A stretch of 64,000 bases of DNA from Candidatus Zixiibacteriota bacterium (GCA_043819555.1 JBDREQ010000064.1:18026-82025); one strand, 5' to 3'; positions 7,149-35,543 are shown, numbered from the stretch's first letter. Numbers and translations are program-made. Notes: generated by a model not told the origin, from the sequence alone.

Positions 7149-7183
7149 GATGCTAACTCCCGCTAACGGCCGGTAAATTAGGT

Positions 7184-10376: not shown

Positions 10377-10394
10377 TTCCGAATATTACAAATT

Positions 10395-10430
10395 AAAAGG
10401 CCGGTCGTAATAAGCGATCGGCCCTTTTTT
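10395..10430. terminator. Bidirectional intrinsic terminator between convergent genes
   Basis: AAAA-GGCCGGTCG-TAATAAG-CGATCGGCC-CTTTTTT. Confidence 0.75.
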
Positions 10431-10445
10431 ATTCATGTGTGACGT

Positions 10446-11579
10446 TTATGATTCAATAAGTTCAACATTGGCGCGCGGGACAATCGCGGTTTGACCGTCG
10501 TCAAATTCGACTTCCAAAACGCGAGCCTTTGATTCTGATTCCAAAACCTGGAGCGGCGATGGCAATCCTGAAACCTTACCCAGCATTCCAAAATAAGGGT
10601 GGCGGATAACACGAATCGGAGATCCAATTTCAAGACCCTGCTGTTCATAGGCGGCTGAGTCATCCTTTTCTTTCGGATCACCGCCGAGAGGTACAACTAC
10701 TTCCGGGCGGATTACGCCGGCTCGAATTTGAGTAGCCCCATTAATACATGCCATTTGCCCATTTCTGGATTTAAGCAGATCAAATGTTTTTTGAGCCATG
10801 TTGATATCGCCAAACCCTTCCGTAACAACCAGAGTAATGCCCAAATCCTCAGAGCCGGTAATGGCTACGCCGATATCATATCCCAAAAACTCGCGCAAAT
10901 CCTTATCATCAAAACCGCCGGTGACAACGCCTTTGGCCCCGACTTTTATAGCCTTTCTAATAGCATTAGCAGTTACCCGGGAACCGCCGATGATGATGCA
11001 GTCTTTGCAATCATCGGTAATATATTTTTCCTGCAACTGAGTGTAATTATCCGGGACAACAACTTTAATCATCCCATGGGTCTCGCCGCCGATGCCAAAT
11101 ATACCCTGTATAAACGCTCCCCAGGCCGCCACAGCCACACCCTCTTCGGGGATCACTTCCATAACTTCGCCTACGAGATATGCCGTTACTTCAACCGGAA
11201 TGGGCTCTCCGCGCAGAAGAACCTGACCGGTAATGCTGGATATTGATTCCACTGTACCTTTCAAAGTGGACGCACTTGAAGAGGAAAATATTTTCAATCC
11301 AAAAAGAGGTTTTGTGCGGGCGATAATTTCGCCCTTTTCAACCGCGTCACCCACCTTTTTGAGCATACATCCCTCAATATCCTCGGGTGGCAACCCCAAT
11401 TGGTTGGCGACATTAATAGGTTCGACGTCACCGGGTAAAAATGTCCGGGCAACTACGGTCTCAGGCGAAACTCTGTCGCCCTTTGAAGCGACAACTTCTC
11501 CTTTAAGGGGGAGAATTCTTCTCTTCGTCACAAGCAGCTTTTCGCTGACTTTCAATCCGGGTGTATATGCATGTGCCAT
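10446..11579 (-). CDS. Conserved hypothetical cytoplasmic protein (barrel-sandwich-hybrid-like repeats, KOW-like C-terminus), GlmL-associated
   Basis: 377-aa ORF with RBS; GEVVASKGDRV and KKVGDAVEKGEIIA resemble lipoyl/RnfC-N barrel-sandwich repeats; C-terminal IGSPIRVIRHPYFGMLGKV is KOW-like; no signal peptide or TM. Confidence 0.75.
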   Translation of the reverse strand: MAHAYTPGLKVSEKLLVTKRRILPLKGEVVASKGDRVSPETVVARTFLPGDVEPINVANQLGLPPEDIEGCMLKKVGDAVEKGEIIARTKPLFGLKIFSSSSASTLKGTVESISSITGQVLLRGEPIPVEVTAYLVGEVMEVIPEEGVAVAAWGAFIQGIFGIGGETHGMIKVVVPDNYTQLQEKYITDDCKDCIIIGGSRVTANAIRKAIKVGAKGVVTGGFDDKDLREFLGYDIGVAITGSEDLGITLVVTEGFGDINMAQKTFDLLKSRNGQMACINGATQIRAGVIRPEVVVPLGGDPKEKDDSAAYEQQGLEIGSPIRVIRHPYFGMLGKVSGLPSPLQVLESESKARVLEVEFDDGQTAIVPRANVELIES

Positions 11580-11612
11580 TCTGTTTTTGCCTTCCTAAAA
11601 TTACTCCAAATT

Positions 11613-12419
11613 CTAATCGGACTTTTCCTTTGATTTTTTCACGCGAGGCGCGATGACAAAATTCCATATCAAGCCAAAAGAAATGATCACTAATACTCCG
11701 GCAAGCATCCAGTTTTTGAATCGCGTAACCGGTTCAGCCGCCTGTTCCTCAGTCGCCTCAGATGAAGATTCGTTCAGGTTTTCCGTATTGCCGACTTCCG
11801 TAAATTTCAGTTCTTCCTGCGCCTGAGCTTCTTTTAAATTATCAAATGATAGTGATGCGATCACGCTGTCAAAAATCGGCTTATTATCTTCAAACGCGGA
11901 ATCCGGACTATAACAATAGAGAGTCACCAAACCGGCGTCATTCAATTTCATATGCATCAGAAGCTTCATCATCGCTTCAGGAGTAAAAGCCATTTCCGAT
12001 ATGACTGTAATTGATTTTTCTTTCAAATTTAACCGAGGCTGTCCGGGCAACAAATCAGACATTTTATCCACTACGCGGCTTTTGTAAATGTCCTTCTTAT
12101 AACTGTCGGAGATATCTTGAAGCAATGAATCCGCCTCGTGCTTGCCCAATTCTCCGGTAGAGTCGAAGGCAATCACGACATAAGCGTCATCCAGATATTG
12201 CGATGATATTGGCGCGAAAACTGCTTCATAATTATATGCATCGCTGGAGGCATCAGAAGGCGAAAATATGGCATCAACAATTCGGTAATCGACTTTTTCC
12301 CAATTTTTCGGATAGCTTATCCAGAAACCGCCTTTCCAATTGACATAGTTTCCTGCCAGAGCGCCAATTGGCAATATAAAAACCGCCAATGCTAAAAAAA
12401 TTATCACCCACTTTTTCAT
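11613..12419 (-). CDS. Exported protein with C-terminal membrane anchor (PsbP/DcrB-like N-terminal motif)
   Basis: Start refined to ATG 12419 (MKKWVIIFLALAVF...ALA signal); GFWISYPKNW motif; C-terminal TM followed by basic tail. Confidence 0.7.
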   Translation of the reverse strand: MKKWVIIFLALAVFILPIGALAGNYVNWKGGFWISYPKNWEKVDYRIVDAIFSPSDASSDAYNYEAVFAPISSQYLDDAYVVIAFDSTGELGKHEADSLLQDISDSYKKDIYKSRVVDKMSDLLPGQPRLNLKEKSITVISEMAFTPEAMMKLLMHMKLNDAGLVTLYCYSPDSAFEDNKPIFDSVIASLSFDNLKEAQAQEELKFTEVGNTENLNESSSEATEEQAAEPVTRFKNWMLAGVLVIISFGLIWNFVIAPRVKKSKEKSD

Positions 12420-12444
12420 AAAAATATATCCTTCATATGATCCC

Positions 12445-14298
12445 TTAATCATTATCCAGGGCCTTTTTGGGATAAATATCAAGTTCTGTCATCCATTTTT
12501 TCAAAGAGCTAATCCTCTGTGAATTATCTTCCGGCAGTACAAATGGATTGCGGCCTCGGCCATCGAGAATAATCCCAACTACGCCGCCTTTGAGTTCTGT
12601 CTCGACTTTTTGTCCGCGTCCTTTGCCGAGATCGAGGTGCTTTAGCGGTTCCAGCGTCGCCTGGGCAGTCATCGGTAATCCGTTTTCGGCGACGCCGAGC
12701 TTGAGCAGCTTAATCTCGCCGAATTCAAGTCTGCCCGAAACAGTTCCGTCAGGCAGATCAATCTTATAACTGAGAATCTCTCCGCCTTTTTTAACTTCTC
12801 CCGAAGGAGCCACACAGGTTCCGAGATGAATCAAACAGTCTTTTTCAAATACTTCGGTAGCCGCCTGAGGATGCAATGTAGAAAGAACGCCCAACTGGGG
12901 CATCATAAAGATGGAATCAACCGCGAGGCGAGTTATGCCTTCCGGCTGAAACGCGTCAATCAGCATCAGGGCCGATTGCTGCCGGCGGGGAGCGTGAGAC
13001 AATACGCCGCCCGAACCGATTAGCATGTCCAGAGTCATCATATTGACAATTGTCGAACCGGAACTATCCTGTTCAAAGGCGTCGGCGATTGTCCTCTGTT
13101 TTTGAACGCCTTTCAAAACCGTCGCGAAACTTTTATGCTGTATAAAGGCCAAGCGAAGAGCTTCCTTCGCGACTCCCTGTTCAAACACTAATTCTTCCAT
13201 TGATTGAGGAATCGTCGTCGGGCGGATCATTTTATTTTTAACTCGGTTGCGCAGATCGCGCTCATCCATTTCAAATGGCACCCAGCGCATGATATTGGGC
13301 AGAGTCGCTTCAGCGAACACATTTGAAATTGAGTAACTCATCCCCAAATTAGCCGATACCGTCCGGTTAAAGACGCCTTCTCCTCCACCGGGACGGAAAA
13401 CGGAAAACACATCAGTCGTAGCGCCGCCGATATCAACTCCAACGGCTTCCATATTTCCCAGATCGGCAATCGTCTTGATAATCAATCCCACCGCCCCCGG
13501 CGTCGGCATGATCGGAGCATCGGTCCATTTCATCAGTTTGGAATATCCCGGAGCCTGCGCCATGACATGTTCCATAAATAAGTTATGAATCTCTTCACGG
13601 GCGGGATAGAGGTTTTCCCGCTCTAAAACCGGTCGGAGATTATCGACAATGCCTAAATCTACTTTTTTATCAAGAGTTTCTTTGACGGCTTTGCGGGCTT
13701 CTATATTACCGGCGAAAATAACCGGTAATTTATATCCCGAACCCAGGCGCGGTTTGGGATCGGCTGCGGCAATTAATTCCGCGATTTCCGCGACGTGCGA
13801 TGTGGTTCCACCGTCGATCCCTCCCGATAATAAAATCATATCGGGACGCAAATGACGAATTCTTTCAATTTGCTGATGAGGACGGCGCTTGTCGTTGGAT
13901 GCTATCACATCCATAACGATTGCTCCCGCCCCAAGAGCGGCGCGCTCGGCCGATTCGGCTGTCATAGAACGAACCACACCGGCAACCATCATTTGCAATC
14001 CGCCGCCGGCCGATGAAGTCGAAATATAAATATCGCATCCCCGGTCCCCGTCTGCGGGCGTGATGATTCTATCGTTTTCATCGAGCAGAGTTTTATTGGT
14101 CAATTCACCGACTTCGGCCACGGCGTTGAGGACCCCCATCGTTACATCCTCAAAAGGCGCTTCAACCGTCGTGGGCGCCTCGCCTCGTGCAATCAATCGA
14201 TACTCGCCGTCTCGTTTTTCTATCAGGATTGCCTTGGTAGTCGTTGAACCGCAATCGGTAGCCAAAATTGTATTAATCTTTTCCAGATTCTCAAGCAT
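12445..14298 (-). CDS. GlmL/MutL-like (glutamate mutase L family) ASKHA-fold ATPase
   Basis: TDCGSTTTK (phosphate-1), TSSAGGGL, LSGGIDGG, IMPTPGAV, VDIGGATTDVFS (phosphate-2), RTVSANLGMSYS, IGSGGVL. Confidence 0.85.
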   Translation of the reverse strand: MLENLEKINTILATDCGSTTTKAILIEKRDGEYRLIARGEAPTTVEAPFEDVTMGVLNAVAEVGELTNKTLLDENDRIITPADGDRGCDIYISTSSAGGGLQMMVAGVVRSMTAESAERAALGAGAIVMDVIASNDKRRPHQQIERIRHLRPDMILLSGGIDGGTTSHVAEIAELIAAADPKPRLGSGYKLPVIFAGNIEARKAVKETLDKKVDLGIVDNLRPVLERENLYPAREEIHNLFMEHVMAQAPGYSKLMKWTDAPIMPTPGAVGLIIKTIADLGNMEAVGVDIGGATTDVFSVFRPGGGEGVFNRTVSANLGMSYSISNVFAEATLPNIMRWVPFEMDERDLRNRVKNKMIRPTTIPQSMEELVFEQGVAKEALRLAFIQHKSFATVLKGVQKQRTIADAFEQDSSGSTIVNMMTLDMLIGSGGVLSHAPRRQQSALMLIDAFQPEGITRLAVDSIFMMPQLGVLSTLHPQAATEVFEKDCLIHLGTCVAPSGEVKKGGEILSYKIDLPDGTVSGRLEFGEIKLLKLGVAENGLPMTAQATLEPLKHLDLGKGRGQKVETELKGGVVGIILDGRGRNPFVLPEDNSQRISSLKKWMTELDIYPKKALDND

Positions 14299-14561
14299 GT
14301 TTCTCTCACTATCCTAAATGTAAAATCCCAAAATTGCCTGTCTGCAAAATCATTTTTACTTCCCAGCCACAAATATAGCGGCCAAGAAAAGATTCCAAAT
14401 ATAATCATCAGAGGCAATTTTGTCCACCCCTTTCGGAAGGATTTTATTGGCCAAAAACTACCTCTCCTAATCGACAGTTCTGTAACCATTTCCGAGAAAT
14501 AGCAATATTGGCATGATGTGGGGGAAAAAAGAACTTGCATCGACCGGGTTTCCCTGCCCAC

Positions 14562-15344
14562 GGGCGAGGCGACCTCGCCCCTACATCAAAAATAAAATCC
14601 TTTGCTATTATCATATAAATAGAGTATTATTGATTTGTGCGCGATTGCTTAGTCATTGCGAGTCCCGCGTTAGCGGGACGTGGCTAACTGTTGAGGGAAA
14701 AATCTTGGGCAATAAGGCAATTGAATAAAGATAATTCAAAATTGACGAGTGATGGATGAATAATCTTCTTGTCAAAAATCAACATTATATCCCGGAAGGA
14801 TTCCTTAAAGGATTCACCGATTCTGATGGTAGATTGGTGGAAGTCCTTTTGAGGAACAAGAAAATTTATCGGACTAGCCCTTCTAATTCAATGTCTGAGA
14901 AATTTGTATACGAGCATGATAACCTAAGAAGGAATACCTTAGAAAAGTATTTTGCCAAATTAGATAGTAACATTGTACCAAGACCGGTGGCCCATTGTTC
15001 CCGTGAAACGGGAACGGTGGGTTCCCGCTTTTATGCCTATGCACCAACTCCATCAATCTCCAATGGCACCTTGCCCAGGATTCCGTATTCATATTTAATA
15101 ATAGAGTAATTGTACGATAATTGCAACAAATTTGGGAATTACTTACGGGCAGACGAGGACGTCTGCCCTTTTGAATTTCATTCCGGCAGATGTCAACATC
15201 TGCCGGCCACAATTAATATGTGTCATTGTGAGCGAACGAAGTGAGCGTGGCAATCTTGGAATTTTGTGAGATGGAAACAGATCGCCACGTCGGCCTTCGG
15301 CCTTCTCGCGATGACCGAGACGACAACCCGAGGGTTGTCGCTAC
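14562..15344. repeat. Cluster of REP-like palindromes of several classes
   Basis: GTAG/GTGG-tailed hairpins at 14562-14584, 14987-15021, 15183-15210, 15321-15344; hairpin 15147-15168; GTCATTGCGAG...CGTGGC-type units at 14652-14684, 15222-15256 and inverted at 15279-15315. Confidence 0.8.
14756..15109 (+). pseudogene. Truncated DUF4238-like gene remnant
   Basis: KNQHYIPEGFLKGF...SEKFVYE...LEKYFAKLD resembles the DUF4238 N-terminus; plausible protein sequence ends where a palindrome begins (~14987). Confidence 0.6.
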
Positions 15345-15545
15345 GAATTTATTGGCGGGATCGCGGGCTTCCGCCCGGCCAAGTCCAACAATTTGCCTCC
15401 CCAACTGGAACCTTTTCTTGCGATTTGTTGTATAAATTCTTAATCCGCAAGCGTTTTTTGTTGAATTAAACACAACCTTTTTCTATCGTTATCAGTCTGA
15501 CAGATAAAACATAAACCTTTTTATAGAGATTGTGTACAATAGGTT

Positions 15546-16705: not shown

Positions 16706-16710
16706 CAGCC

Positions 16711-17427: not shown

Positions 17428-17429
17428 GT

Positions 17430-24456: not shown

Positions 24457-24765
24457 GGGATATTTTCGTTTTTTTGAAAAAACTTGCTTCATATCATTTT
24501 GTGGTCAAACAAGTTAGTTTTCTGAATAAAGCGAAACTCTTGTAATAAACTCCATTGTAACAACTTACGACTACCACCGCAACTCCCGATCCAGCAATAG
24601 CTTAACATTCTAAAAGACACATTCCTACTGATTCTTTTTACAGGATTAAATTATTGAAAAAAAGGCACAGATTTAAATCTGTCTCCCCGCCTTTATAGTT
24701 TTAATATAGTACGTTGTTAAAACTTTATTCAATAATTTTTTTTGATTTTCTGGAAATTTTTTAAC

Positions 24766-24797
24766 AAAAAAAACCCCGCTCGATGACGGGGTTTTTT
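24766..24797 (-). terminator. Intrinsic terminator of the triplicated cassette operon
   Basis: A-run-ACCCCG-CTCGATGA-CGGGGT-T-run just after the D3 stop. Confidence 0.75.
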
Positions 24798-24821
24798 ATC
24801 TTATTTAATCTATACTAAATA

Positions 24822-25607
24822 TCAAGCCGGCGCCTGTGCTGATTTCTTTTGCAGGTGGCGAATGATTTCAAGTATGATTAACAAAACCAAAATCAGGGCA
24901 ATTGCCCAGACAACGGTTGTCATACCTCCTCCCCCTTCGAATCCGGCCGAGACCCAGTCGCGAATTATTTGAATTCTTTGAATGAAAAGCGAGATGCGCG
25001 CCATAACTGTATATCCAAACGATGCGCCAAAACCAATCATTAGAATATATATTCCAAATTTAGCGACACCGCCAAACGTGCCCTTATGAGCGACCGAGAA
25101 AAAGAAGTAGAATAATCCGGTAACGACTCCTAAGATTATTACTACGTCTTCAAAGCCAACCCAAAATCCCTCGGCAAAATGCTGTTTAACATCAAACAGA
25201 ATATTAACCGTATCGGCCAATTGACGGCTGACCCTGTTCTGCATTTCCGTAGGAATAGCTACACCGGTAGCGATACCGATATAAAAGGCAATCGGATAAC
25301 GAGAAATCCAGGCTTTCTTTTTGGAGAAGCGAAACCACATAAGCACTCCAAGAATTCCCGGGAATAAATACCACCATTGTCCTCCCCAGAATTGCCACCA
25401 GGGCTGTTCCGGCGTCATCCAGACTTTGTCAAAGAGAGTCGGGATTAAACTGGTATAGACCAGAATCATCGAAAAGTAACCGGCTGATACGCCGACAAAT
25501 AAACTCTCGGAAAATTTATAAAACGGATTGTCTTTATACAGAAATGAAAACGTACACAGGGTGAGACAAACACCGAGAGTCGTCCAAAGAAAAGTTGCCC
25601 AATCCAT
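24822..25607 (-). CDS. Cassette subunit D, copy 3: multi-pass membrane protein
   Basis: Start refined to ATG 25607 (TGATG overlap with C3); motifs SFLYKDN.FYK..E, YFFFS..HKG.FG and FGASFGYTVM.R shared with D1 and D2. Confidence 0.85.
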   Translation of the reverse strand: MDWATFLWTTLGVCLTLCTFSFLYKDNPFYKFSESLFVGVSAGYFSMILVYTSLIPTLFDKVWMTPEQPWWQFWGGQWWYLFPGILGVLMWFRFSKKKAWISRYPIAFYIGIATGVAIPTEMQNRVSRQLADTVNILFDVKQHFAEGFWVGFEDVVIILGVVTGLFYFFFSVAHKGTFGGVAKFGIYILMIGFGASFGYTVMARISLFIQRIQIIRDWVSAGFEGGGGMTTVVWAIALILVLLIILEIIRHLQKKSAQAPA

Positions 25608-26470
25608 CAGTGCGTCCCTCCTCTCCGCCTGGAAATAAAGAAACCTATATTTCCAATCAAAATAAAGATTATGATTGTCATATGGGTCCAAACCTGAACT
25701 CTCATGGCCTCCATCGCTGGACCGGGCTTTGCCCCCGGTAATTTTTTACGGAGCAATGTTTCGTATTCAGCGGCACCGAGCATTCCACCCATAAGTCCGA
25801 ATAATTGGCCAGAGCGAAGGTATGGATAATAATCGGCTGCGGATACGCCGGTTAGTCCAGCGGCCAGAAGAGCGTTATATCTGCCGTTGGCGTAAGAAAG
25901 CCAATAATCGATTCCGCTTGTCCCCGTGATTAAAATAATACCTTCGACATTATTGTAATTAACAATGCCGTTCATCATTGGTATGCTGTCGGTCAGCGTA
26001 TTATAATAATCACTGGGGAAGGATAACCTGTAATTCTGCCCCATACTCAGGATGACAATTCCCGGATATGGTTTGTATCCGAGAAACACGACGTCCTGAC
26101 CATATGTAAGTTCACGTCCGTATTTGGTTCTCACCGAATCCATAACATCAAGCATTGCTGCTTCAGCCATCCCCGGACCGTTTGGAGATAACGCGGTAAT
26201 TATTAGCTTAACCCCTTTTGCCATGGCCTGCTCCATGATAGCATAAGTCATCGGATGCAACTCAGCCATTGAACCGGGATCATAGTCCACTGCGAAATGG
26301 ATATACTGGCCTTCCTCAAGATTTTCAACGAAATCATAAATCGAACGAACTTCCGGATTGACACGGAGAGGCGATTCGAATTCAATCAGAACAGTAATAA
26401 TAACGACTGCGGCAAGGATCAGGTATATCCATCTTCTATCGAGTCCTGCTATTTTTTCAAAAAAATTCAT
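25607..26470 (-). CDS. Cassette subunit C, copy 3: membrane protein with soluble domain between TMs
   Basis: DYDP...EL.PM and YPY...GQL.GLMGG..GAAEYE shared with C1 and C2; GGAGG RBS. Confidence 0.87.
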   Translation of the reverse strand: MNFFEKIAGLDRRWIYLILAAVVIITVLIEFESPLRVNPEVRSIYDFVENLEEGQYIHFAVDYDPGSMAELHPMTYAIMEQAMAKGVKLIITALSPNGPGMAEAAMLDVMDSVRTKYGRELTYGQDVVFLGYKPYPGIVILSMGQNYRLSFPSDYYNTLTDSIPMMNGIVNYNNVEGIILITGTSGIDYWLSYANGRYNALLAAGLTGVSAADYYPYLRSGQLFGLMGGMLGAAEYETLLRKKLPGAKPGPAMEAMRVQVWTHMTIIIFILIGNIGFFISRRRGGTH

Positions 26471-26483: not shown

Positions 26484-27101
26484 TCAATCGCTTCCCATAT
26501 AGGTTCGTTCAATACCAAGGATAACCTTGAGAGCAGTTCCCACCATACCCAGGCCGATTCCGATAACGATCGCTCGTTTGGCGGCCATATTGGGCACGTT
26601 TAGAATCCAAGCGGCCAGATCACCGATCGGTTCGCCCAAAAATCCCAGAAATGGATTAAATCTCAACATTATAATTATTGCGGCAAGAAGTAAAACTGTT
26701 GCCAGAAGAGAGTGTGCCCTGAATGCCCGGAATGCCGCCGAGGCGATAAAAAATGCCAATAGCGAAAACATCGTCGCGTGAAGGGGCATTATTATATACA
26801 GGAAGAAACTACGGAACATATATGATTCCAATCCTCCAAATAGGGCAAAGATGGTCATACTAATTAAGCCGGCAAGAACAACAATCGCGTATTGCCAGTT
26901 TTCCGCTTTTCGTTTTATTTTATTGGCTGAAACTCTGATCAGCGACCATATCCCCAGAGCCAGCGCAAAAATACCGATAATAATTGTCCATTCCATCACA
27001 AATTCATAAACGAATTCCGAGCTGCTGTGAGGAATAAAAAATTGTACCGCCATAAACAGGCCGGTAACAAAGACAATCATTAGAGGAATTTCTCTTTTCA
27101 T
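26484..27101 (-). CDS. Cassette subunit B, copy 3: multi-pass membrane protein
   Basis: MKREIP, TMFSLLAFFIASAAFRAFRA, RAI.IG.GLG, ILGIERTYMG shared with B1 and B2. Confidence 0.87.
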   Translation of the reverse strand: MKREIPLMIVFVTGLFMAVQFFIPHSSSEFVYEFVMEWTIIIGIFALALGIWSLIRVSANKIKRKAENWQYAIVVLAGLISMTIFALFGGLESYMFRSFFLYIIMPLHATMFSLLAFFIASAAFRAFRAHSLLATVLLLAAIIIMLRFNPFLGFLGEPIGDLAAWILNVPNMAAKRAIVIGIGLGMVGTALKVILGIERTYMGSD

Positions 27102-27114: not shown

Positions 27115-28326
27115 CTAATTACCGACCCGAAAAAGGTTCATAAAGCCGTCCCAATTAAAAATAGCCGCAACGACTCCAAGTAAAATACTAATTATAACTA
27201 GTGCTTTTCCGTAGTCCTGACCTTTTAAAGAACCGAGTAAAACCGGTTCGCGACCGAGATATGCCGAAGCTGCATAGAGTTCTTCCCCGATCAGGGTATA
27301 ATCGCAAGCCACAACGAAGAAAGGAATCTGAGTAACCTCATCAGTACCGGAAATCTGAATCGATCCAGTGGCTGATCCGGTTTCTGCCAGGATAAGCGAT
27401 TCGGCGTAAAATTTACCCAAATAAAAATTCGTCGCCGGTTTTTCTCGAACCATGATTCCATTAACACCGCCAACATATGCGAACTGCTGATTGGTAACAA
27501 AGAAAATATCATCCTCATTGTAAGCGTCCGGACGTCCGGCATCATAGTAAGCGGTCTTGACAGTTTCCTGGGCGACCGTCATAACGATCGGATCATAACA
27601 GGGAACAATTAGCGAAGTCTGATATTCGGCGACTTTTTTGGCGACGCGGCTGAGGATAGTAAACGATGCGATAGTCGCGACGTCCGCGGCGGTACCCAAT
27701 CCCAGAACGTACAAAATCGGTTTTCCCATTTCCGTGGCCCGACCAATTGCTTCGTCAACAGCGTCAATTCCCGCCAGCGGGCGAACATATAATTCCGCAC
27801 CAGCCCGAGCTCTCTGGATAAAATACAGAGTAAAGATAGTAAACAGGATTACTGCGGCCGCAACTGGAGTTTTTCCCCAGTTGTAATACTGCCCCACAGC
27901 ACGTACCGGCCCAAATGCTTCCGATTCAGTATTGCCATTTTTCTGAAGGGCAACTATTTTATACCAGAAGTCTTTTTCTCTTGGGAAGTAATCAGCATTA
28001 TCAGATTCCTTAACGCCGCTATCCCTTTCCGAAGTATTCCCGCGAGCAACATCTTTTCGTTCCGCAAAAGGTTCATCCGGTGATTCCGCTCGCAAAATGC
28101 GATAACCGATGAAATCTAAATTTTCATCAACATCATCGGCCGATAACTCCCATTCCAGCGATATTGAATGACCGTTATCATTGGGAGTATCAACTGCATT
28201 TACGTTTGTGGGCGGCGCCGGCAGCGCAGATTCAGCGACACTATCGGGGACTGCTTCATCTTGAGCCCATCCGGCAACGGGAATAACCAGAAGTACCATG
28301 ATAAACAGTAAAAATTTGTTTTTCAT
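27115..28326 (-). CDS. Cassette subunit A, copy 3: signal peptide + FN3 + TM + DUF6754-like domain + TM
   Basis: Start refined to ATG 28326 after GGAG; GRATEMG, REKPA, AESLILAETG, PFFVVACDYTLIGEEL, LGSLKGQD shared with A1 and A2. Confidence 0.87.
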   Translation of the reverse strand: MKNKFLLFIMVLLVIPVAGWAQDEAVPDSVAESALPAPPTNVNAVDTPNDNGHSISLEWELSADDVDENLDFIGYRILRAESPDEPFAERKDVARGNTSERDSGVKESDNADYFPREKDFWYKIVALQKNGNTESEAFGPVRAVGQYYNWGKTPVAAAVILFTIFTLYFIQRARAGAELYVRPLAGIDAVDEAIGRATEMGKPILYVLGLGTAADVATIASFTILSRVAKKVAEYQTSLIVPCYDPIVMTVAQETVKTAYYDAGRPDAYNEDDIFFVTNQQFAYVGGVNGIMVREKPATNFYLGKFYAESLILAETGSATGSIQISGTDEVTQIPFFVVACDYTLIGEELYAASAYLGREPVLLGSLKGQDYGKALVIISILLGVVAAIFNWDGFMNLFRVGN

Positions 28327-28365
28327 AATGACTCCACTCATCATCTATTATATTTATTTTGTATT

Positions 28366-29178
28366 CTATTGAATCAGTCCCAGCCAATCATCCAACAAGA
28401 ATGTCAAACGTCCGACCAGAAGCGATATTCGTCCCATCACTGTGTATCCGAATGAAGCCCCAAAAGTAATCATCAGAATCCAAATGCCAAAACGCGAGCT
28501 TACACCAAAAGCTCCCTTATGCTCCTTGCTGAAAAAGAAATATATTATTCCGCAAAATACGCCCGTGAAAACTACAAGGTTGCTTAGCATTCCGACCAAT
28601 TGACCGGACGCCGCAAGAGACATATTTGAGAAAAAATGTCCAAAGCCTTGCCAATCGACTAATAAAGGCATAAACGTAGATGAAATCTGCGAAATAAAAT
28701 CTGAGCGCAAGAATCGCGGCAAATTCAAACCGGCCGTGGTTCCGACAATAAATGCCAAAGCCCATCTCGATATCCAGCCGCCTTTGGGCGACAGTCGCAT
28801 CAACAGGATTATTCCTAGCGCCGGAGGAATTAAATAATGCCATTCGAATCCGGCAAACGGCACATCAAACCAGTTACTTAAAGTTTCCGATACGCGGGGG
28901 AATAGATTGCCAACCAATGTCGTCCAAAAACCGAGACACATCCAGTAAGCTGCGGAAACACCAACATACAGATGCTCGGCGAACTTGTAAAAGGTATTAT
29001 CCTTATATAAGAAAGACAACACTGCCAAGGTTAAAAATGCCGCGAATGTTACCCAGAAGGCTGACGCAAATGAATCGAATGCAGAGGCGCTTTCAGGCGA
29101 GCCCAACATTTTAGCCCAAATGCTGAATAAAAACAATACCGCCACAACCGCAACAACGATAACTGGTCCCTTACGCAT
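28366..29178 (-). CDS. Cassette subunit D, copy 2
   Basis: SFLYKDNTFYKFAE, YFFFSKEHKG, FGASFGYTVMGR; extra N-terminal TM. Confidence 0.87.
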   Translation of the reverse strand: MRKGPVIVVAVVAVLFLFSIWAKMLGSPESASAFDSFASAFWVTFAAFLTLAVLSFLYKDNTFYKFAEHLYVGVSAAYWMCLGFWTTLVGNLFPRVSETLSNWFDVPFAGFEWHYLIPPALGIILLMRLSPKGGWISRWALAFIVGTTAGLNLPRFLRSDFISQISSTFMPLLVDWQGFGHFFSNMSLAASGQLVGMLSNLVVFTGVFCGIIYFFFSKEHKGAFGVSSRFGIWILMITFGASFGYTVMGRISLLVGRLTFLLDDWLGLIQ

Positions 29179-30088
29179 CGATATTTTTCCTTCTGCTCCG
29201 GAAGTAAGAAATATTCCCGATTACGATAAAAGCCATCACGACAATATGCGCCAGCGTTTGCGGTCCCATCATTCTCAGGGCGGGCGCTTCGGTATCCTTA
29301 AATTGAGGATATCTCTCCATTAATTTGGATTCATATTCAGCGGCACCCTTAACGCCGCCCAAAAGGCCAACTACCTGCCTGGGATAATAAGGGTATATCT
29401 GCGGAGCCACGACAGCCGCCAAACCCGCCGCAATATCAACATTCCCCGGATCACCGATGAATTGTATCCATTCTTTTGGTCCTGGAAATCCGCCTCCAAT
29501 CGCAAGTATCAAATCCATATCCGTAGCCGAATTGACATTTTTAAAAATCGGCAATTCGGATAATTCAGTATTATTATCATCGGTCGGGTACATTTTCTGG
29601 AAATCGGTAACAATGACATTCAATACTCCAACACCGCCAGCCTTAAATCCCAGTGATGTAAAATCTACGCCATAAACCGCGTCGGGAAAATCAGTTTTCA
29701 AAACTTCTTCAATACTTTCGGTCATAAGCGCGTGGCCGGTAGCCCAAAGAGTCATAAAATACATTTTGTGCCCTTTTGACATGCAATGCCGGACAAAAGC
29801 ATTTGCCATCGGGCCCACTTCAGGCTTCATCGCTGGATCAAAATCAAATGATATTAAAATTTTTGAACCGGGCGGCATGCTATCGATCTTTTCAAATACG
29901 GCCCTGACAATGGGTGTTGGTGTCTCTTTAAACTTAATATTGAAAACTATTGCGAAGGCGACGGATAAAAATATAAACAGGAATATGATGCGGCGATCTA
30001 TATCTCGGCCCTTCAGAGAATAAATCAGGATGACCAATAGACCAATCAGTACTCCGACGACGGATAGAATTGAGCCGATATTAGTCAT
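29171..30088 (-). CDS. Cassette subunit C, copy 2
   Basis: SFDFDPAMKPEVGPMA, YPYYP.QVVGLLGGVKGAAEYE; ATG 30088 overlaps the B2 end. Confidence 0.87.
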   Translation of the reverse strand: MTNIGSILSVVGVLIGLLVILIYSLKGRDIDRRIIFLFIFLSVAFAIVFNIKFKETPTPIVRAVFEKIDSMPPGSKILISFDFDPAMKPEVGPMANAFVRHCMSKGHKMYFMTLWATGHALMTESIEEVLKTDFPDAVYGVDFTSLGFKAGGVGVLNVIVTDFQKMYPTDDNNTELSELPIFKNVNSATDMDLILAIGGGFPGPKEWIQFIGDPGNVDIAAGLAAVVAPQIYPYYPRQVVGLLGGVKGAAEYESKLMERYPQFKDTEAPALRMMGPQTLAHIVVMAFIVIGNISYFRSRRKNIDA

Positions 30089-30755
30089 TATCACTCCCCA
30101 GATAAGTTCGTTCCATGCCTAATATCAGCCTGAGGGACATCGATACTACGCCTAAACCGACACCGATTAGAATCGCCCTTTGCCCCGCCAAATTTGGACC
30201 GTTCATAATCCAAACGGCCAAATTTGGAATTTGGAGAACGGAAAATGATTCGGGAATCCAGCCGGTTACGGCCATACCCAACGGTGTCCTGCCCAATAAA
30301 ATAATAAATGCCGCAATAAGGAGTATTGTGGCCTCTCGATTTTTGGCGCGAAACGCCCTGTACGACGCTGAGGCAACAAAGAACGCCAATAGAGCGTACA
30401 TTGTCGAAGATAACGGCGCGATAATATTATCGAAGATTACTTTTAATGCGGTTCCTTCGGCAATAACCGAAGCCGCGATGTTTTCACTGCCGACTTTTAG
30501 CATGCCCAATATCAGAGTCAGCAAAAACCCGGTGATGGTAACGATTGAAAATCCCCAATCGGGTTTCTTGCGATATACTTTGGCGAAATGTATGCGGACC
30601 AGGTTTCCTCCGCCGAGGAAAAACGCGAATACCGCGATAATATCAAAAAACAGCGAGAAATCTTCACCCAACGTTTGAGCGGTCGGGAAAAAAACCGAGA
30701 GGATCAGAACAACTCCTACCACTGATGTTATGACAATCGGTATAATGCGTTTCAT
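30081..30755 (-). CDS. Cassette subunit B, copy 2
   Basis: STMYALLAFFVASASYRAFRA, AGQRAILIG, ILGMERTYLG. Confidence 0.87.
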   Translation of the reverse strand: MKRIIPIVITSVVGVVLILSVFFPTAQTLGEDFSLFFDIIAVFAFFLGGGNLVRIHFAKVYRKKPDWGFSIVTITGFLLTLILGMLKVGSENIAASVIAEGTALKVIFDNIIAPLSSTMYALLAFFVASASYRAFRAKNREATILLIAAFIILLGRTPLGMAVTGWIPESFSVLQIPNLAVWIMNGPNLAGQRAILIGVGLGVVSMSLRLILGMERTYLGSDND

Positions 30756-30773: not shown

Positions 30774-31988
30774 CTAATTAGTTGCGAATATAGCGTTCAA
30801 TATATCCAGGAGCCATTGCATTGATTCACTGCCCCAGGCATTAGCGATTGTTGCGGCCATCGTGCCCAGTAAGATGGCGCACATTGCCATAATCTTTCCG
30901 ATATCCTGCCCTTTTAATGATCCCAGCTGTTTGGGATCGCCCGATAGATAAGCCGACGCTGCAAATAATTCTTCACCAATTAAAGTGTAATCGCAGGCGG
31001 CCACAAAAAACGGCAACTGACCTGGGCGAGCCGTACCGGCGATTTGAATCGCCCCGATACTATTACCGGTCTCGGCCAGAATCAGGGACTCCGCGAAAAA
31101 AGCGCCCAAATACAGACAGGTCGCCGGCTTTTCGCGCACCATGATTCCATTCACAGCCGCTACAAATCCAAACTGCTCATCGGTGATATACTGAACCATA
31201 TCGTCGCTGTATCCATCAGGGCGTCCGGCCGACATATATGCTTCTTTTATTGTTTCTCGGGCGGAAGTCATTACCAATGAGCGCGAGACAGGCATCCTTA
31301 TTTTACTATCATAGTCGGCAATAACTCGGGCAACTCGCCCCAAAATAGTTATCCCCGCAATTGTTTGAACATCGTCCATATCCTGAATACCGGCTATAAA
31401 TAAAATCGGGCGTCCCATTTCGGTTGCGCGGCCAACCGCCTCTTCAATCGCTTCCAAACCCGCGATTTTTCTAATAAAAAATTTGCGCCCGCCCTTTACA
31501 GACAATATAAAGCCTATGACCGAACCGCAAACGATAAAGGCCAGAATCAGAATATTCAATTGACCAAAATTAAAAAACTCCCATGTTGCCGCTGCGGGCC
31601 GTGATGGTTCCGAAATAGATTCACCGGCCGAATTATACGCCGCGACTTTATACTGATAAGGGATATCGTTTTCTAACTCCTGGTCACTATAAGTAGTCTG
31701 GCCAATTATTAAATCGGTAATGTGTTCAAAATCGTTGTCCGACTGTGAACGATATAGTTTGTATCCGAGAATATTATCGGGATCGTCAGGGGATTTTTCC
31801 CAGGTCACGATTAATATTCCACCGGCGTCATATACCGCGTTTTGGGCAGTTACATTAGTCGCCGGCAGAGGCAGAGAAACAACCAAAGAATCGGCCAATT
31901 CATCAATTGGAGTTACTTCCTCGGCGAAAACCGCCAATGAAGATATGAGACAAAACGTAAGTGCCGGCGCTAAGAATATCTTATTCAT
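30774..31988 (-). CDS. Cassette subunit A, copy 2
   Basis: ATG 31988 (TAATG overlap with D1); FN3 (W...GYKLYRS...YQYKVAAYN); GRATEMGRP...ACDYTLIGEELFAASAYL. Confidence 0.87.
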   Translation of the reverse strand: MNKIFLAPALTFCLISSLAVFAEEVTPIDELADSLVVSLPLPATNVTAQNAVYDAGGILIVTWEKSPDDPDNILGYKLYRSQSDNDFEHITDLIIGQTTYSDQELENDIPYQYKVAAYNSAGESISEPSRPAAATWEFFNFGQLNILILAFIVCGSVIGFILSVKGGRKFFIRKIAGLEAIEEAVGRATEMGRPILFIAGIQDMDDVQTIAGITILGRVARVIADYDSKIRMPVSRSLVMTSARETIKEAYMSAGRPDGYSDDMVQYITDEQFGFVAAVNGIMVREKPATCLYLGAFFAESLILAETGNSIGAIQIAGTARPGQLPFFVAACDYTLIGEELFAASAYLSGDPKQLGSLKGQDIGKIMAMCAILLGTMAATIANAWGSESMQWLLDILNAIFATN

Positions 31989-32617
31989 TACGGTAATAAT
32001 CCGAGCCATTGATCAAAAAGAAAATCAAGTCTTCCAAGCATAAGCGACATACGGCTCATTACCGTATATCCGAATGAAGCTCCAAAGGTGGCCATCAAAA
32101 ACCAAATGCCGACCTTTGCGGTCGCTCCAAAAAGCCCTTTATGTTCTTTACTGAAGAAGAAATAAACAAGGCCAGAACAGACTCCAACAATAATAATCAA
32201 GTTGTTTATAAAGAGACTGGCTCCGCCCCCAAAAAGAGGCACAATTGTTGCCGAAACCTGTTGCATGGCATTAGAGACAAAGTACATCATCATATATAAA
32301 CCGGCCGTCGCGCCGACTATGAAAGCAAGCGGCCATCGCGCTATCCAGCCAATCTTATCAAAAAGGCGGGCCAGCATAAGAACTCCCAAAATAAAACCGA
32401 ACCATGGATAAATTAAGGGATCTGTGGCAAAAACTGTTTGTTCCAGAAATTTACTGTACATCATGTCCCAAAAATAGACGACAAACCAGTAACCGGCCGA
32501 AGCGCCGACAAAGATCGCCTCACTTATCTTGTAGAACACATTGTCTTTATATAAGAAAGAGATAATGCCCAAAGTCAAAAGAGCAGCTACCCAAATGCCA
32601 AATACTTCCCAGCTCAT
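31988..32617 (-). CDS. Cassette subunit D, copy 1
   Basis: SFLYKDNVFYKISE, YFFFSKEHKG, FGASFGYTVMSR; ATGA overlap with C1. Confidence 0.87.
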   Translation of the reverse strand: MSWEVFGIWVAALLTLGIISFLYKDNVFYKISEAIFVGASAGYWFVVYFWDMMYSKFLEQTVFATDPLIYPWFGFILGVLMLARLFDKIGWIARWPLAFIVGATAGLYMMMYFVSNAMQQVSATIVPLFGGGASLFINNLIIIVGVCSGLVYFFFSKEHKGLFGATAKVGIWFLMATFGASFGYTVMSRMSLMLGRLDFLFDQWLGLLP

Positions 32618-33609
32618 GACTTTTTCTCCTTCTTTTTCTTATCCCGAAGATAGGCGACATTACCAATTATTATAAAACCGATCACTACGATATGCGCGAA
32701 CGATTGTGATAATAAAAACGTGGTTGCCTTGCCCATATATTCAGTCAGCAATTCAAATTCAGCCGCGCCTGACATGCCTCCCATTAATCCGATTAATTGC
32801 CCCGAATTGACATAAGGATAAGCCATTGGAGCCTGAACCGCGGTATTCCCGGCTCCCATTTTTAGATTATATCTATCAACGGCCAATTGAACCCATTCAA
32901 CGGTTCCCGGCTTACCGGCAGAAAGATTTATCGAATAATCTATATTTGTAAAATTCGAAACGTTGCGCACCAATGGGATCGAATCATAAATTCGTCCATT
33001 CATATCGCGCGGGAATGTTGCCCGAATCGATTCGCCCATGCGCAGGATTACGAATTCATTCCCTGATTGAAAACCAAGATTGCAATAATCAACCCCATCA
33101 ACCTTCTGCGTCCGCCATTCAGGATTTTCCACAAAAGCCGCCTCAAGCGCAAGCTGCGCCTGCTGCGGACCCATGGGCCACAAACCCATAATAATTAAAT
33201 TCAAATCATGCTCGAAGGCGTATTTGATTATGCATTCCGCCATTGGTTGTAATTCTGGCGCGGACGGGGGATCATAATCAAAAGAAACCAATATGGTCGA
33301 ACCCGACTGCAGTTCAACCAATCCATCATAGACGCCTCGAACTTCAGCTGAGATTTGAATGGGAAGGGTGAATTGCATGAAAAATGGCAGGAGCAGCGAA
33401 ATGCCAATCAATAAAAATACCATCCGACGCTTAACATATTTCCCTTGCAACGTCCTGACAAAAATAATAACGAAAACCAGAAACATCAGGATGATGATGA
33501 CCGTCGAAACCGTAGTCGAAAACCGAAGCGGTCCCTTCATAAAGTAACAAACAAGAAAAAATATGGCGATTAACACCGTTGCAATAATTTCTTTCATCCT
33601 GATAGTCAT
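32614..33609 (-). CDS. Cassette subunit C, copy 1
   Basis: SFDYDPPSAPELQPMA, YPYVNSGQLIGLMGGMSGAAEFE; three N-terminal TMs; TGATG overlap with B1. Confidence 0.87.
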   Translation of the reverse strand: MTIRMKEIIATVLIAIFFLVCYFMKGPLRFSTTVSTVIIILMFLVFVIIFVRTLQGKYVKRRMVFLLIGISLLLPFFMQFTLPIQISAEVRGVYDGLVELQSGSTILVSFDYDPPSAPELQPMAECIIKYAFEHDLNLIIMGLWPMGPQQAQLALEAAFVENPEWRTQKVDGVDYCNLGFQSGNEFVILRMGESIRATFPRDMNGRIYDSIPLVRNVSNFTNIDYSINLSAGKPGTVEWVQLAVDRYNLKMGAGNTAVQAPMAYPYVNSGQLIGLMGGMSGAAEFELLTEYMGKATTFLLSQSFAHIVVIGFIIIGNVAYLRDKKKKEKKS

Positions 33610-34256
33610 CAATCACCCCCCAGATACGATCGTTCAAGCCCAATAATAATTCGCAGAGAGTTGGAAACCAATCCGAGGGCGATACCCATCATAATCGCCC
33701 GCTGTCCGGCAGTATTAAGAACATTCATTATCCAGTTAGCCCATTGAGACATTTGATATTTGTAAGGAAGCCAGGAGGTAATAAGATCCCCTACCGGAAC
33801 CCGTCCAAGCATTACAAAAAACGCAGCCAAAAGTAATATGGTCGCCTCAAAATTGCGAGCCCTGAAGGCTCGATAAGAAGCTGAGGCTACAAAAAACGCC
33901 AGCAGAGCAAACATAGTCGATGACAACGAACTATAGACATTGATATAAAGCCAGTCAAATGCCGTGCCAGGGTTTCGAAATTCTATCCCGCCAGCAAATC
34001 CGGCAATAGCAACGATTAAAAACGATATTATAATTATAACGGCATATGGCCAATCGGGACGTTTCCTGAAAATTTTTATGCTGGAAATTTTAATCAGATT
34101 CAACGCGCCCAGCCAGATTGCGAAAGCGGCCACAATTAAAAACCAATCGGTAAACCATTTCTCAAATTCATAAAATGGCCAATGCGGTATGAAATAGGAT
34201 ATAACATACGCAACACCGACTACAAAGGTTATTATCAGGGGTATTTCTCGTCTCAT
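33609..34256 (-). CDS. Cassette subunit B, copy 1
   Basis: MRREIP, STMFALLAFFVASASYRAFRA, AGQRAIMMG, IIGLERSYLG. Confidence 0.87.
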   Translation of the reverse strand: MRREIPLIITFVVGVAYVISYFIPHWPFYEFEKWFTDWFLIVAAFAIWLGALNLIKISSIKIFRKRPDWPYAVIIIISFLIVAIAGFAGGIEFRNPGTAFDWLYINVYSSLSSTMFALLAFFVASASYRAFRARNFEATILLLAAFFVMLGRVPVGDLITSWLPYKYQMSQWANWIMNVLNTAGQRAIMMGIALGLVSNSLRIIIGLERSYLGGD

Positions 34257-34283
34257 CAAAAATCCCTTATATTTTCTATTTCG

Positions 34284-35543
34284 TTAATGGGCGGCAAACC
34301 ACTCCGAGATATTCCAATCCGGGTTAAGCGCCAGTAAGATTACACCAATTATAATCGCTGTCAGACAAAGCACTTTGCCTACGTCCTGCCCCTTAAGCGA
34401 TCCCAAGAGTTTTGGTTCGCCTGTCAAATATGCCGACGCCGCAAAAAGTTCCTCGCCAATTAAAGTGTAGTCGCAGGCCGCGACAAAGAACGGCAATTGT
34501 GCCGGCATGGCCGTGCCCGCTATTTGAATGGCGCCAATGCTGTTACCAGTTTCAGCCATGATTAGTGATTCAGCGAAGAAGGTACCGATCAGAAAAACTG
34601 TCGCCGGTTTTTCACGCACAAATAATCCGTCAATTGCTGCAGCATATCCGAATTGATCATCAGTAAGATATCTTACCTGATCTTCAATAAAAGAATCCGG
34701 CCGACCGGCTTTGCTGTATGCTTCTTTGACGACTTCTTTGGCCGTGACCATAACCATAGAACGGCAAACCGGTACATCTATTCGGGTATCGTTTTCGGCG
34801 GCAATCGTCGCAACCCGACCCAAAATTGACATACTGGCAAGGGTTTGAACATCATCCATATCATGAATGCCCGGAACATAATATATTGAACGCCCCATTT
34901 CCGTGGCACGTCCCACCGCATTCTCCACTTCTTCAATACCGGCAATTTTCCGGATATAAAATTTCTTCCCGCTTTTGGCCGCAAAGATAAAATAAATAAT
35001 TGAGGATGACAGCAGGATCGTACCGATAAAAATTACAAAGCGACTCATATTAAACCATTGAGAGACAGATTTCACAGGTCCAATCACGGCAGAACTACTC
35101 GATGTCGACCATAAAACATTCCCGCCCGTTTTGACAAAATTCACAGTAATGATTTTATAATAGTATTCCGTATCGGTAGGCGCCTGAAAATCAGTAAACG
35201 TAGTATGCCCTTGCGGGGTACTGCCCAGTTCCGTGAATTCTCCTTCCGGCGATGTACTGCGTAATATCTTATATTCCATTACATTGCCGCCTTCATAGTC
35301 GTCTGGCGATCTTTCCCAGTTGATTACAATGGCATCACCCTTATCATTTGCATTGTCAAAGGCGTTAATATCAAAGGCAGGCTGCGGGGTTAGTTCCTCC
35401 AAAAACGACGAATCATAAACCTGTTGGGCTAGAGTATCTGTATTTGATTCAACCGGTTCGGATTGAGCTATAGCTTTTGGTGAGGATAGTACTAATGAAA
35501 ATAGAACGGCATAAAAAGAAAAAACACTAAGTCGTTTAAGCAT
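34284..35543 (-). CDS. Cassette subunit A, copy 1
   Basis: Signal peptide, FN3-like domain, TM, GRATEMG...ACDYTLIGEELFAASAYL...GSLKGQD, C-terminal TM. Confidence 0.87.
   Translation of the reverse strand: MLKRLSVFSFYAVLFSLVLSSPKAIAQSEPVESNTDTLAQQVYDSSFLEELTPQPAFDINAFDNANDKGDAIVINWERSPDDYEGGNVMEYKILRSTSPEGEFTELGSTPQGHTTFTDFQAPTDTEYYYKIITVNFVKTGGNVLWSTSSSSAVIGPVKSVSQWFNMSRFVIFIGTILLSSSIIYFIFAAKSGKKFYIRKIAGIEEVENAVGRATEMGRSIYYVPGIHDMDDVQTLASMSILGRVATIAAENDTRIDVPVCRSMVMVTAKEVVKEAYSKAGRPDSFIEDQVRYLTDDQFGYAAAIDGLFVREKPATVFLIGTFFAESLIMAETGNSIGAIQIAGTAMPAQLPFFVAACDYTLIGEELFAASAYLTGEPKLLGSLKGQDVGKVLCLTAIIIGVILLALNPDWNISEWFAAH

Follow-up and report, generated by a model that had tools for sequence, protein, structure and literature searches.

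Background

According to the legend of Fig. 4 in PMC4682846, the canonical gene context of the ATPase GlmL is the order glmS-glmL-glmE, and the naming used in NCBIfam agrees with it. A longer relative of GlmL is encoded in different company in the stretch of DNA analysed here, 64,000 nt from Candidatus Zixiibacteriota bacterium (GCA_043819555.1 JBDREQ010000064.1:18026-82025), which is called the window in the following. The listing of open reading frames (ORFs) of the window contains three co-oriented ORFs on the minus strand at 10446-14298, designated G, X, and P. They correspond to what a first, sequence-only reading had described at this place, genes for a 617-aa ATPase, an exported anchored protein, and a 377-aa soluble protein. 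Judged by its sequence, the ATPase G has GlmL/MutL as its closest characterised relative, but it is probably the cytoplasmic ATP-using part of a membrane machine and not a helper of a vitamin B12 enzyme. Three cassettes of membrane protein genes, A to D, lie on the same strand of the window, and the A proteins belong to the family DUF6754. We see about an even chance that G and P constitute a soluble ATP-driven unit serving such DUF6754 membrane complexes, in this case three paralogous ones.

A long-form ATPase of the MutL/GlmL family

G (12445..14298, minus strand; 617 aa) matches the Pfam family MutL (PF13941) over profile positions 1-450 of 450 with its residues 11-488. The score of 436.9 bits (E 1.1e-130) compares with a gathering score of 27 bits. 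The actin/ASKHA motifs quoted in the sequence-only reading are all present in the translation and intact, DCGSTTTK at residues 15-22, DIGGATTD at residues 289-296, and GSGG at residues 429-432. We take them to be the phosphate-1 (DxGxT), phosphate-2 (DxGG), and adenosine (GxGG) motifs. Among 26 diverse long-form sequences, which are 29-63% identical to the window protein, D15, G17, T21, and G430 are invariant, and D289 and G291 are nearly so, as they are in a set of 12 sequences. The intact motifs suggest that G hydrolyses ATP. Beyond the Pfam domain, G extends for about 130 residues, and this C-terminal extension is conserved. Its motif G..D.RGRP is invariant or nearly so in the 26 sequences, with G575, D579, and R581 invariant. 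A 19-residue hydropathy scan detected no hydrophobic segment in G or in P.

None of the three GlmL-type models of NCBIfam scored G above its cut-off. The values were 225.8 bits for the equivalog GlmL (NF040745, cut-off 475), 216.2 bits for Or-4 (NF040744, cut-off 600), and 169.5 bits for the subfamily glmL_fam (TIGR01319, cut-off 204.05). The relative P0242, in which G and P are fused, yielded 239.4 bits with NF040745, also under 475. Despite such scores below the cut-offs, NCBI and JGI records list close relatives of G as 'glutamate mutase L', 'methylaspartate mutase', or 'TIGR01319 family'.

These public names and the membership in Pfam MutL would agree with G being a GlmL-type reactivating chaperone for an adenosylcobalamin (AdoCbl) enzyme that is encoded elsewhere in the genome, the neighbourhood of G being coincidental. 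The central domain of P, which matches PA, RraA, LdcA, and pyruvate-kinase C-terminal domains, points in the same direction, as this fold class is also present in diol dehydratase reactivase. We nevertheless consider this explanation very improbable. Besides the position of G below all three cut-offs, Pfam scans of the window (3 + 34 + 20 ORFs, two of the 10 small non-overlapping ORFs among them, and the other eight of these 10) detected no B12-binding, Met_asp_mut_E, or other mutase domain, which confirms the earlier statement that glmE, glmS, or another B12 enzyme is absent from the window. In 80 related loci, which are described below, the first flanking genes outside the families considered here were likewise scanned with Pfam, and none of these 133 genes carries a B12 or mutase domain. 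The view of the first reading that G is not a mutase reactivase is supported by these three results. In addition, an Rfam scan of the window and of 6 related loci detected neither a cobalamin riboswitch nor another RNA family, the small gene c2, which is found at the position expected of glmS, has no Pfam match, and synteny with the membrane cassette is conserved in 12 phyla. From its sequence, G is a long-form ASKHA member of the MutL/GlmL family, and it is probably not an accessory protein of glutamate mutase.

Conservation of G across phyla is unusually high at the sequence level. In all 80 loci, from many phyla, the best segment is 61-85% identical to the window protein. The family comprises 3054 cluster representatives at E <= 1e-3. 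Since at least 8000 database relatives exist for G and for P at this threshold, at least 8000 of those of G being close ones, both are, on this evidence, real genes rather than chance ORFs. Searches of PDB chains with sequences and profiles revealed no relative of solved structure for either protein. Matches to ABC_tran or P-loop families of Pfam and NCBIfam were not obtained with G, X, or P, and the weak sub-threshold Pfam matches of G were to Hydantoinase_A and Hydant_A_N. Members of the G family were also seen in metagenome-assembled genomes (MAGs) labelled Clostridia. Two relatives, P0251 (1332 aa) and P0243 (1304 aa), contain about 700 additional residues N-terminal to the G region, with a Peptidase_M1 domain in P0251 and a bacterial TSP3 repeat in P0243. 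These forms could be real fusions or artefacts of gene calling.

Linkage of G to P and to a membrane cassette

The surroundings of G were compared in 80 loci of named genomes in public databases. They represent the best 80 among 358 confirmed relatives, and 12 closer G sequences served as query for the locus scan. Individual loci are cited by number (L002 and so on). Members of the families were detected by BLAST and then by hidden Markov models (HMMs) built from the window's own proteins, at distances of up to 10 kb from G.

P was present by HMM in 55/80 loci. At least 1.5 kb of sequence downstream of G is available in 67 loci, and in 50 of these P is found downstream on the same strand, 46 times within 1.3 kb. 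Furthermore, 43 of the 150 best-scoring G representatives at 50% identity carry a P-family region C-terminal to G. An example is the 995-aa P0242, in which residues 621-994 align with P at 48% identity over 376 residues (E 7e-119). Conversely, all longer relatives of P (44/44) contain PF13941. The fused forms recur on many separate contigs and are therefore no accidents of assembly. By fusion and adjacency, an association of G with P is strongly implied.

The families of the membrane cassette were also found within 10 kb of G, A in 29/80 loci, B in 27, C in 25, and D in 25. If the count is restricted to the 34 loci whose flanks reach 9 kb or more on either side of G, A is present in 17. The 29 A-bearing loci cover 12 named phyla, Zixibacteria, Planctomycetota, Ignavibacteriota, Bacillota, Eisenbacteria, Pseudomonadota, Latescibacterota, Fidelibacterota, Calditrichota, Dormiibacterota, Bdellovibrionota, and Sumerlaeota. 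The sequence-only reading had stated that DUF6754-type membrane genes of other genomes often have long GlmL-like genes and members of the 377-aa family as neighbours, and these numbers show that such neighbourhoods exist.

The commonest layout is a tight block G-P-A-B-C-D on one strand, with gaps of -11 to about +40 nt (L080, L046, L072, and L035 are examples). Both P and A are present in 28 loci. A directly follows P in 19 of them, and G and P are adjacent, or separated by X only, in 25. In L055, L056, and L074, G has moved 2-5 kb off and P remains with A. In nine of the 28, G and P are together and the cassettes are located elsewhere in the locus. P is thus tied to both the G and the A side and appears adaptor-like. 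For docking of the G-P unit on A, it is synteny that carries the implication. One G-P set accompanied by two or three cassettes was detected in six loci besides the window (L006, L010, L011, L012, L015, and L030). The reverse ratio was observed in L053 (3240-12943), where two G-P pairs in tandem come after a single A-D cassette and the first of the P paralogues has 483 aa.

As an internal control, the recurrence of the other window ORFs was determined. With the exception of tol-pal and one oxidoreductase they recur in three loci at most; for the GFO/IDH/MocA ORF, found in 7 loci, the identity is 26%, a generic family match. According to rough reasoning rather than computation, chance would bring a rare family to within 10 kb of any one gene in roughly 1% of genomes. 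Median identities to the window proteins are 66% for G, 55% for P, 46-48% for A, 39-44% for B and D, and 34-40% for C. The order G > P > A > B/D > C is the one expected for a cytoplasmic engine that is followed by an adaptor, a core in the membrane, and a part in the periplasm.

The partner protein P

P (10446..11579, minus strand; 377 aa), the predicted soluble partner of G, has no Pfam family above threshold. A weak match to RnfC_N (PF13375) reached 16.5 bits (cut-off 25.6). Its relatives are 'hypothetical' wherever they are named. In the AlphaFold2 model, with a mean confidence (pLDDT) of 85.5, an N-terminal barrel, a central alpha/beta domain, and a C-terminal KOW/SH3-like domain can be distinguished. 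The N-terminal region may be of the barrel-sandwich-hybrid type. Foldseek matched the central domain to PA domains, RraA, LdcA/MccF, and the C-terminal domain of S. aureus pyruvate kinase, a group which we take to be the 'swivelling beta/beta/alpha' fold class, and the C-terminal domain to the KOW domain of Spt5 (TM-score 0.83 on the target). These are matches at the level of domains; over the whole chain none was obtained (best E 9.7e-4, TMq 0.12). A search of the ESM Atlas with P returned unnamed clusters only, for which the Atlas contains no structure. In similar Atlas clusters, 11-19% of the members carry PF13375 or PF00364, and one close homologue of P is labelled PF13375. The P paralogue in L053 exceeds the RnfC_N cut-off (40.9 bits against 25.6) and also matches NQRA_N. 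RnfC_N domains are also found in peripheral subunits of membrane complexes.

Two further possibilities for P were considered. As no lysine is invariant among 35 homologues, a role as lipoyl or biotinyl carrier is unlikely. A relationship to the PEP-utilizer mobile domain of the PpdK protein encoded in the window was rejected, the hhalign probability being 0.4%.

The membrane cassettes of the window

G, P, and X are encoded once in the window, and A, B, C, and D three times each, all cassette genes being on the minus strand. Cassette 1 consists of A1 (34284..35543), B1 (33609..34259), C1 (32614..33612), and D1 (31988..32617), cassette 2 of A2 (30774..32009), B2 (30081..30755), C2 (29171..30094), and D2 (28366..29178), and cassette 3 of A3 (27115..28344), B3 (26484..27101), C3 (25607..26470), and D3 (24822..25691), the last cassette gene. 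The three A proteins match DUF6754 (PF20539) with about 400 bits each (A1, 397.9; A2, 401.7; A3, 400). In A1, a signal peptide, an exported domain, a transmembrane segment, a cytoplasmic alpha/beta domain, and a second transmembrane segment follow each other, and the exported part of A2 is an fn3 domain, which was also matched by Pfam. The AlphaFold2 model of A2 (pLDDT 87.7) shows the signal peptide, fn3 at residues 51-141, a transmembrane helix at 148-172, the alpha/beta domain at 183-356, which is Rossmann-like, and C-terminal helices. From hydropathy scans, the B and D proteins are polytopic membrane proteins and the C proteins are membrane-anchored with a soluble domain. The positive-inside rule would place the DUF6754 alpha/beta domain in the cytoplasm and the soluble domain of C in the periplasm.

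Identities among the three A paralogues amount to 57-70% for the cytoplasmic domain, 30-33% for the exported part, and 14-32% for the transmembrane segments. A shared cytoplasmic partner would explain this pattern, and so would a catalytic constraint on the domain. B, C, and D have no Pfam match at E <= 0.001 and hence none to the families of Rnf/Nqr membrane subunits. When nine families were aligned all against all with hhalign, the best probability was 17.5%, confined to a C-terminal transmembrane stretch. In the absence of cross-homology, A appears to be unrelated to C, and B to D. PDB searches with A, B, C, and D revealed nothing except fn3, and an ESM Atlas search with D yielded unnamed clusters only, again without a structure. 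NCBIfam contains no match for A-D, X, or the small proteins c2 and c11 introduced below, and PADLOC detected no family at E <= 0.01 for any of these or for G and P.

A proposed mechanism for the G-P unit

If these data are combined, the following mechanism can be envisaged. G and P would form a soluble cytoplasmic unit, which in many other lineages is a single polypeptide. Binding and hydrolysis of ATP in G would drive a conformational change, P would relay this change to the cytoplasmic DUF6754 domain of A, and the relayed change would power or gate the membrane core of B and D. Three cassettes would share a single G-P pair in this Zixibacterium, and X would act as an accessory in Zixibacteria, Ignavibacteriota, and Calditrichota. 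One G-P module for three complexes would fit the data, because two or three cassettes accompany one module in the six other loci and because the A paralogues are most alike in their cytoplasmic domains.

Several observations weigh against the G-P unit as the driver of DUF6754 complexes. Half of the fully flanked loci, 17 of 34, have no A within 10 kb. The sample leans to the long subfamily, and none of the 80 loci is a canonical glmS-glmL-glmE locus that could serve as a positive control. Fusions of P to A or of G to A were not found, which is weak evidence by the search's own account. In the window itself, a distance of 10.5 kb, measured from the start of G at 14298 to the end of the last cassette gene at 24822, separates module and cassettes, and a terminator-like hairpin follows this gene. 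The fold search with the A2 model returned fn3 matches; since these filled the list, the DUF6754 domain was not placed. Neither P nor A is located near G in any of the Poribacteria loci (0/10), and in the WOR-3 loci L064, L066, L075, and L079 the order gcvP-c2-G is found without P or A nearby.

In eight of the ten Poribacteria loci (L026, L036-L039, L041, L044, and L076), G stands beside a GFO/IDH/MocA oxidoreductase gene, without P or A within 10 kb, and in seven of the eight, L036 being the exception, a xylose-isomerase-like TIM-barrel gene is located directly upstream of G. L031, L040, and L059 differ in that c2 precedes G instead. The downstream neighbours in Poribacteria, c37-c40, were tested as divergent versions of A-D or P and rejected, as the hhalign probabilities did not exceed 3%.

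The exported protein X and small genes before G

X (11613..12419, minus strand) may start at an ATG at 12419, giving 268 aa, or at a TTG at 12482, giving 289 aa. The ATG is the most likely start, because 268 aa fits the range of the homologues (249-306 aa). Two hydrophobic segments were detected in the 19-residue scan, a signal-like one at the N-terminus (residues 5-23) and one at the C-terminus (residues 240-258), as expected for an exported protein with a C-terminal membrane anchor. In Pfam, X showed a weak similarity to PsbP (E 0.005), below the cut-off. The X family was found in 13/80 loci, eight from Zixibacteria, three from Ignavibacteriota, one from Calditrichota, and one without phylum name. 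In the 12 of these with a P gene in the locus sequence, X is located between G and P. X therefore looks, by its distribution, like a lineage-specific accessory insert.

In other phyla, G is preceded by small genes that are missing from the X-carrying loci. One of them, c2, specifies about 100-170 aa with a conserved hydrophobic core, PAILFLE..KPLNYIGSQ, and is present in 43/80 loci (for example L008:9308-9718, L062:9620-9982, and L028:9553-9978). In most of these it directly precedes G; in L046 and L080 it is located between P and A. The other, c11, specifies a protein of about 145-190 aa that contains two hydrophobic helices and the conserved stretch LSPF..PSRLE.FRG and is found before c2 in 21/80 loci (for example L028:9105-9629, L030:9061-9507, and L008:8873-9307). 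Neither c2 nor c11 occurs in the window, and neither matches Pfam, NCBIfam, or PADLOC. Of the X-bearing loci, L005, L006, L011, L012, L013, and L015 have up to three cassettes divergently upstream of G, and in several loci of this kind tol-pal follows P. L002 shares the window's own gene arrangement.

The larger proposal, that c11-c2-G-P-A-B-C-D constitutes an as yet unrecognised membrane machine, a transporter or an envelope system, which is powered by an ASKHA ATPase, occurs in at least 12 phyla, and uses a modular G-P unit for several cassettes, is tentative and somewhat doubtful.

Neighbouring genes

Genes adjoining the block vary with the lineage. In 14 loci, among them L028, L030, L072, L063, L075, and L079, gcvT-gcvH-gcvPA-gcvPB is located directly upstream of c11-c2-G on the same strand, with uvrA before gcv, and in L030 and L072 a gene for lipoate-protein ligase (lplA) follows D. 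Genes for Opp/Dpp-type ABC transporters are interleaved with the block in L080 (about 1300-13025), in L055 and L056 (about 11800-21300), and in L073 (about 16850-20000). In L080, the genes follow each other as oppA-oppB-oppC-G-P-c2-A-B-C-D-oppD/F, separated by -8 to +14 nt, and in L055 and L056 the Opp genes are located between G and P. A gene for an FAD oxidoreductase (DAO) is present upstream of G in four Zixibacteria loci (L003, L009, L017, and L019), and the block has genes for exported M28 or M4 peptidases as neighbours in the window, L002, L004, and L010. The cdsA gene adjoins the block in L046, L060, and L080, and glycosyltransferase genes in L029 and L042.

Such neighbours could indicate that G and P are a soluble ATP-dependent enzyme or chaperone, similar to hydantoinase or oxoprolinase, and that A-D are linked to it by a shared pathway, for example as a transporter in peptide or glycine catabolism, without being powered by it. 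The gcv genes directly upstream of G, the lipoate ligase after D, the interleaved Opp genes, DAO, and the exported peptidases would all find a place in this scheme, as would the weak Hydantoinase_A and Hydant_A_N matches of G and the occurrence of G without P or A nearby in Poribacteria and WOR-3. We regard it as unlikely all the same. As uvrA belongs to the same conserved block, the gcv synteny may be inherited order without shared function, and P lacks an invariant lysine for lipoate or biotin. A substrate-binding family was not recognised, and the conservation gradient and the ratio of one module to two or three cassettes fit a shared subunit of a machine better. Under the preferred reading, in which G-P drives the DUF6754 complexes, the neighbours gcv, lplA, Opp ABC, DAO, M28/M4 peptidases, cdsA, and tol-pal hint at peptide- or amino-acid-related transport or at an envelope function, which is a tentative guess at the cargo.

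The tol-pal genes adjoin G-X-P in 11 loci (L006, L007, L012, L017, and L077 are among them). In the window, the cluster tolQ-tolR-tolA-like-tolB-pal-ybgF-like occupies 15546-20185 on the plus strand. In the window and in L002 it is inverted and located between G and the cassettes. Together with cdsA and the glycosyltransferase genes, this adjacency could suggest a role for G as an actin-like scaffold or filament protein in the manner of MreB, FtsA, or PilM, one that positions or assembles envelope complexes (A-D, X) and is neither motor nor enzyme. G belongs to an actin-fold family, its identity across phyla is high in all 80 loci, and the X-bearing lineages possess exported fn3 and PsbP-like parts, all of which would suit such a function. 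Yet the loci next to tol-pal are all named Zixibacteria, Ignavibacteria/Ignavibacteriales, Calditrichaeota, or 'FCB group', so that this adjacency may be inherited order, the G family is also present in the MAGs labelled Clostridia, and we know of no GlmL-family relative that polymerises. A scaffold of this kind is quite improbable.

Other features of the window

Between G and the cassettes, Pfam identified the tol-pal genes on the plus strand and ppdK on the minus strand, as the sequence-only reading had stated. A cluster of repetitive extragenic palindromic (REP) elements, which it had also placed there, was looked for in the window, and only a few short repeats and hairpins turned up. Directly after the D3 stop an inverted repeat is located at 24745..24820 with 34-nt arms that are 71% complementary. 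It consists of an A-run, CCCCG / CGGGG, and a T-run, and could be a terminator splitting transcription of the cassettes from that of ppdK and the ATPase genes. With this hairpin and the gap of 10.5 kb, co-transcription of module and cassettes is unlikely in the window. A second terminator-like hairpin, at 10399..10423, has 10 pairs, seven of them G-C, followed by a T run, and is a match to the consensus only. It sits between the end of P and a convergent gene for an M28 peptidase.

This peptidase gene, specifying an exported protein with fn3 and a C-terminal sorting domain of the type IX secretion system (T9SS) type, is split into two ORFs on the plus strand, 7396-8376 and 8394-10376. The first of them matches positions 9-59 of the Peptidase_M28 profile and the second positions 89-187. 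In L002, one undivided ORF of 1058 aa encodes the homologue. Either an interruption of the window gene or a sequencing error near 8376-8394 could account for the split. A 117-aa ORF (14756-15109, plus strand), situated in the 1.25 kb that separate G from tolQ, matches just positions 1-72 of the 281-position DUF4238 profile and looks like a gene remnant. Further away, at 44145-50859 on the minus strand, an ordinary lipid A cluster is present, consisting of an lpxC-fabZ fusion, lpxA, GFO/IDH/MocA, lpxB, a Kdo transferase gene, and lpxK. It is consistent with a diderm envelope.

Implications

The genes described here specify some of the most conserved proteins in these genomes, for which neither a function nor a solved structure has been described. 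In the literature, nothing on this system appeared under DUF6754, PF13941, TIGR01319, or 'glutamate mutase L'. From the names 'glutamate mutase L' and 'methylaspartate mutase', B12-dependent glutamate fermentation could be wrongly inferred, and metabolic reconstructions of Zixibacteria, Marinimicrobia, Planctomycetota, Latescibacterota, and other uncultured phyla are concerned. Should G-P drive the DUF6754 complexes, the power unit would be an actin-fold ATPase instead of a P-loop ATPase or an ion gradient, and one unit could serve paralogous cassettes with differing exported parts, three in the window. To our knowledge, no characterised membrane complex is powered by a GlmL-type actin-fold ATPase, and an ATP-coupled complex of this type would be a new way of energising membrane work. 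The system lends itself to experiments, as it offers a unit of two proteins or of one naturally fused protein, a defined cytoplasmic domain of A, and natural variants with one to three cassettes.

Comparison with known systems

The system is far from any described kind and may yet prove to be a variant of something known. Similarities to RnfC and NqrA (PF13375, PF05896) concern the N-terminal region of P, which may be of the same barrel-sandwich-hybrid type, with a score below the cut-off for the window protein (16.5 bits) and above it for the L053 paralogue; P is without NADH, FMN, or Fe-S domains.

ECF transporters likewise combine one cytoplasmic module with several membrane modules, and the ratio here is 1:3 in the window and 1:2-3 in six loci. 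ECF modules use ABC (P-loop) ATPases, whereas G and P have no ABC_tran or P-loop match, and homology to EcfT or S components was not found. As no P-loop or ABC domain is involved, the comparison is an analogy only.

PilM with PilN, FtsA, and GspL are actin-fold proteins that dock on bitopic membrane proteins. As in these cases, G is a soluble actin-fold protein genetically tied to membrane proteins with periplasmic domains, but the relationship is a distant one within the superfamily, and Pfam matches of G to PilM, FtsA, or GspL were not obtained.

Closer relatives are the proteins assisting B12 enzymes. GlmL/MutL (NF040745; PF13941) shares with G the Pfam family, the ASKHA fold, and the intact phosphate-1, phosphate-2, and adenosine motifs. 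G differs by its score (225.8 bits against the cut-off of 475), by about 130 extra conserved C-terminal residues, by the lack of glmS and glmE in the window and among the 133 flanking genes of the 80 loci, and by its links to a membrane cassette and to a 377-aa partner that is adjacent or fused. Or-4 (NF040744) belongs to the same superfamily, but G reaches only 216.2 bits of the required 600, and neither the window nor the scanned set of 133 flanking genes showed genes for ornithine aminomutase or related proteins.

DdrAB and EutA are ASKHA ATPases acting as ATP-driven chaperones on a partner, and DdrA joins the ATPase to a swivelling beta/beta/alpha domain. At the domain level, the middle domain of P matches this fold class. 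Unlike in these systems, G and P have no sequence match to a solved structure, and the partner appears to be a membrane complex and not a B12 enzyme. By analogy, G may work as an ATP-driven chaperone of the reactivase type on a membrane partner.

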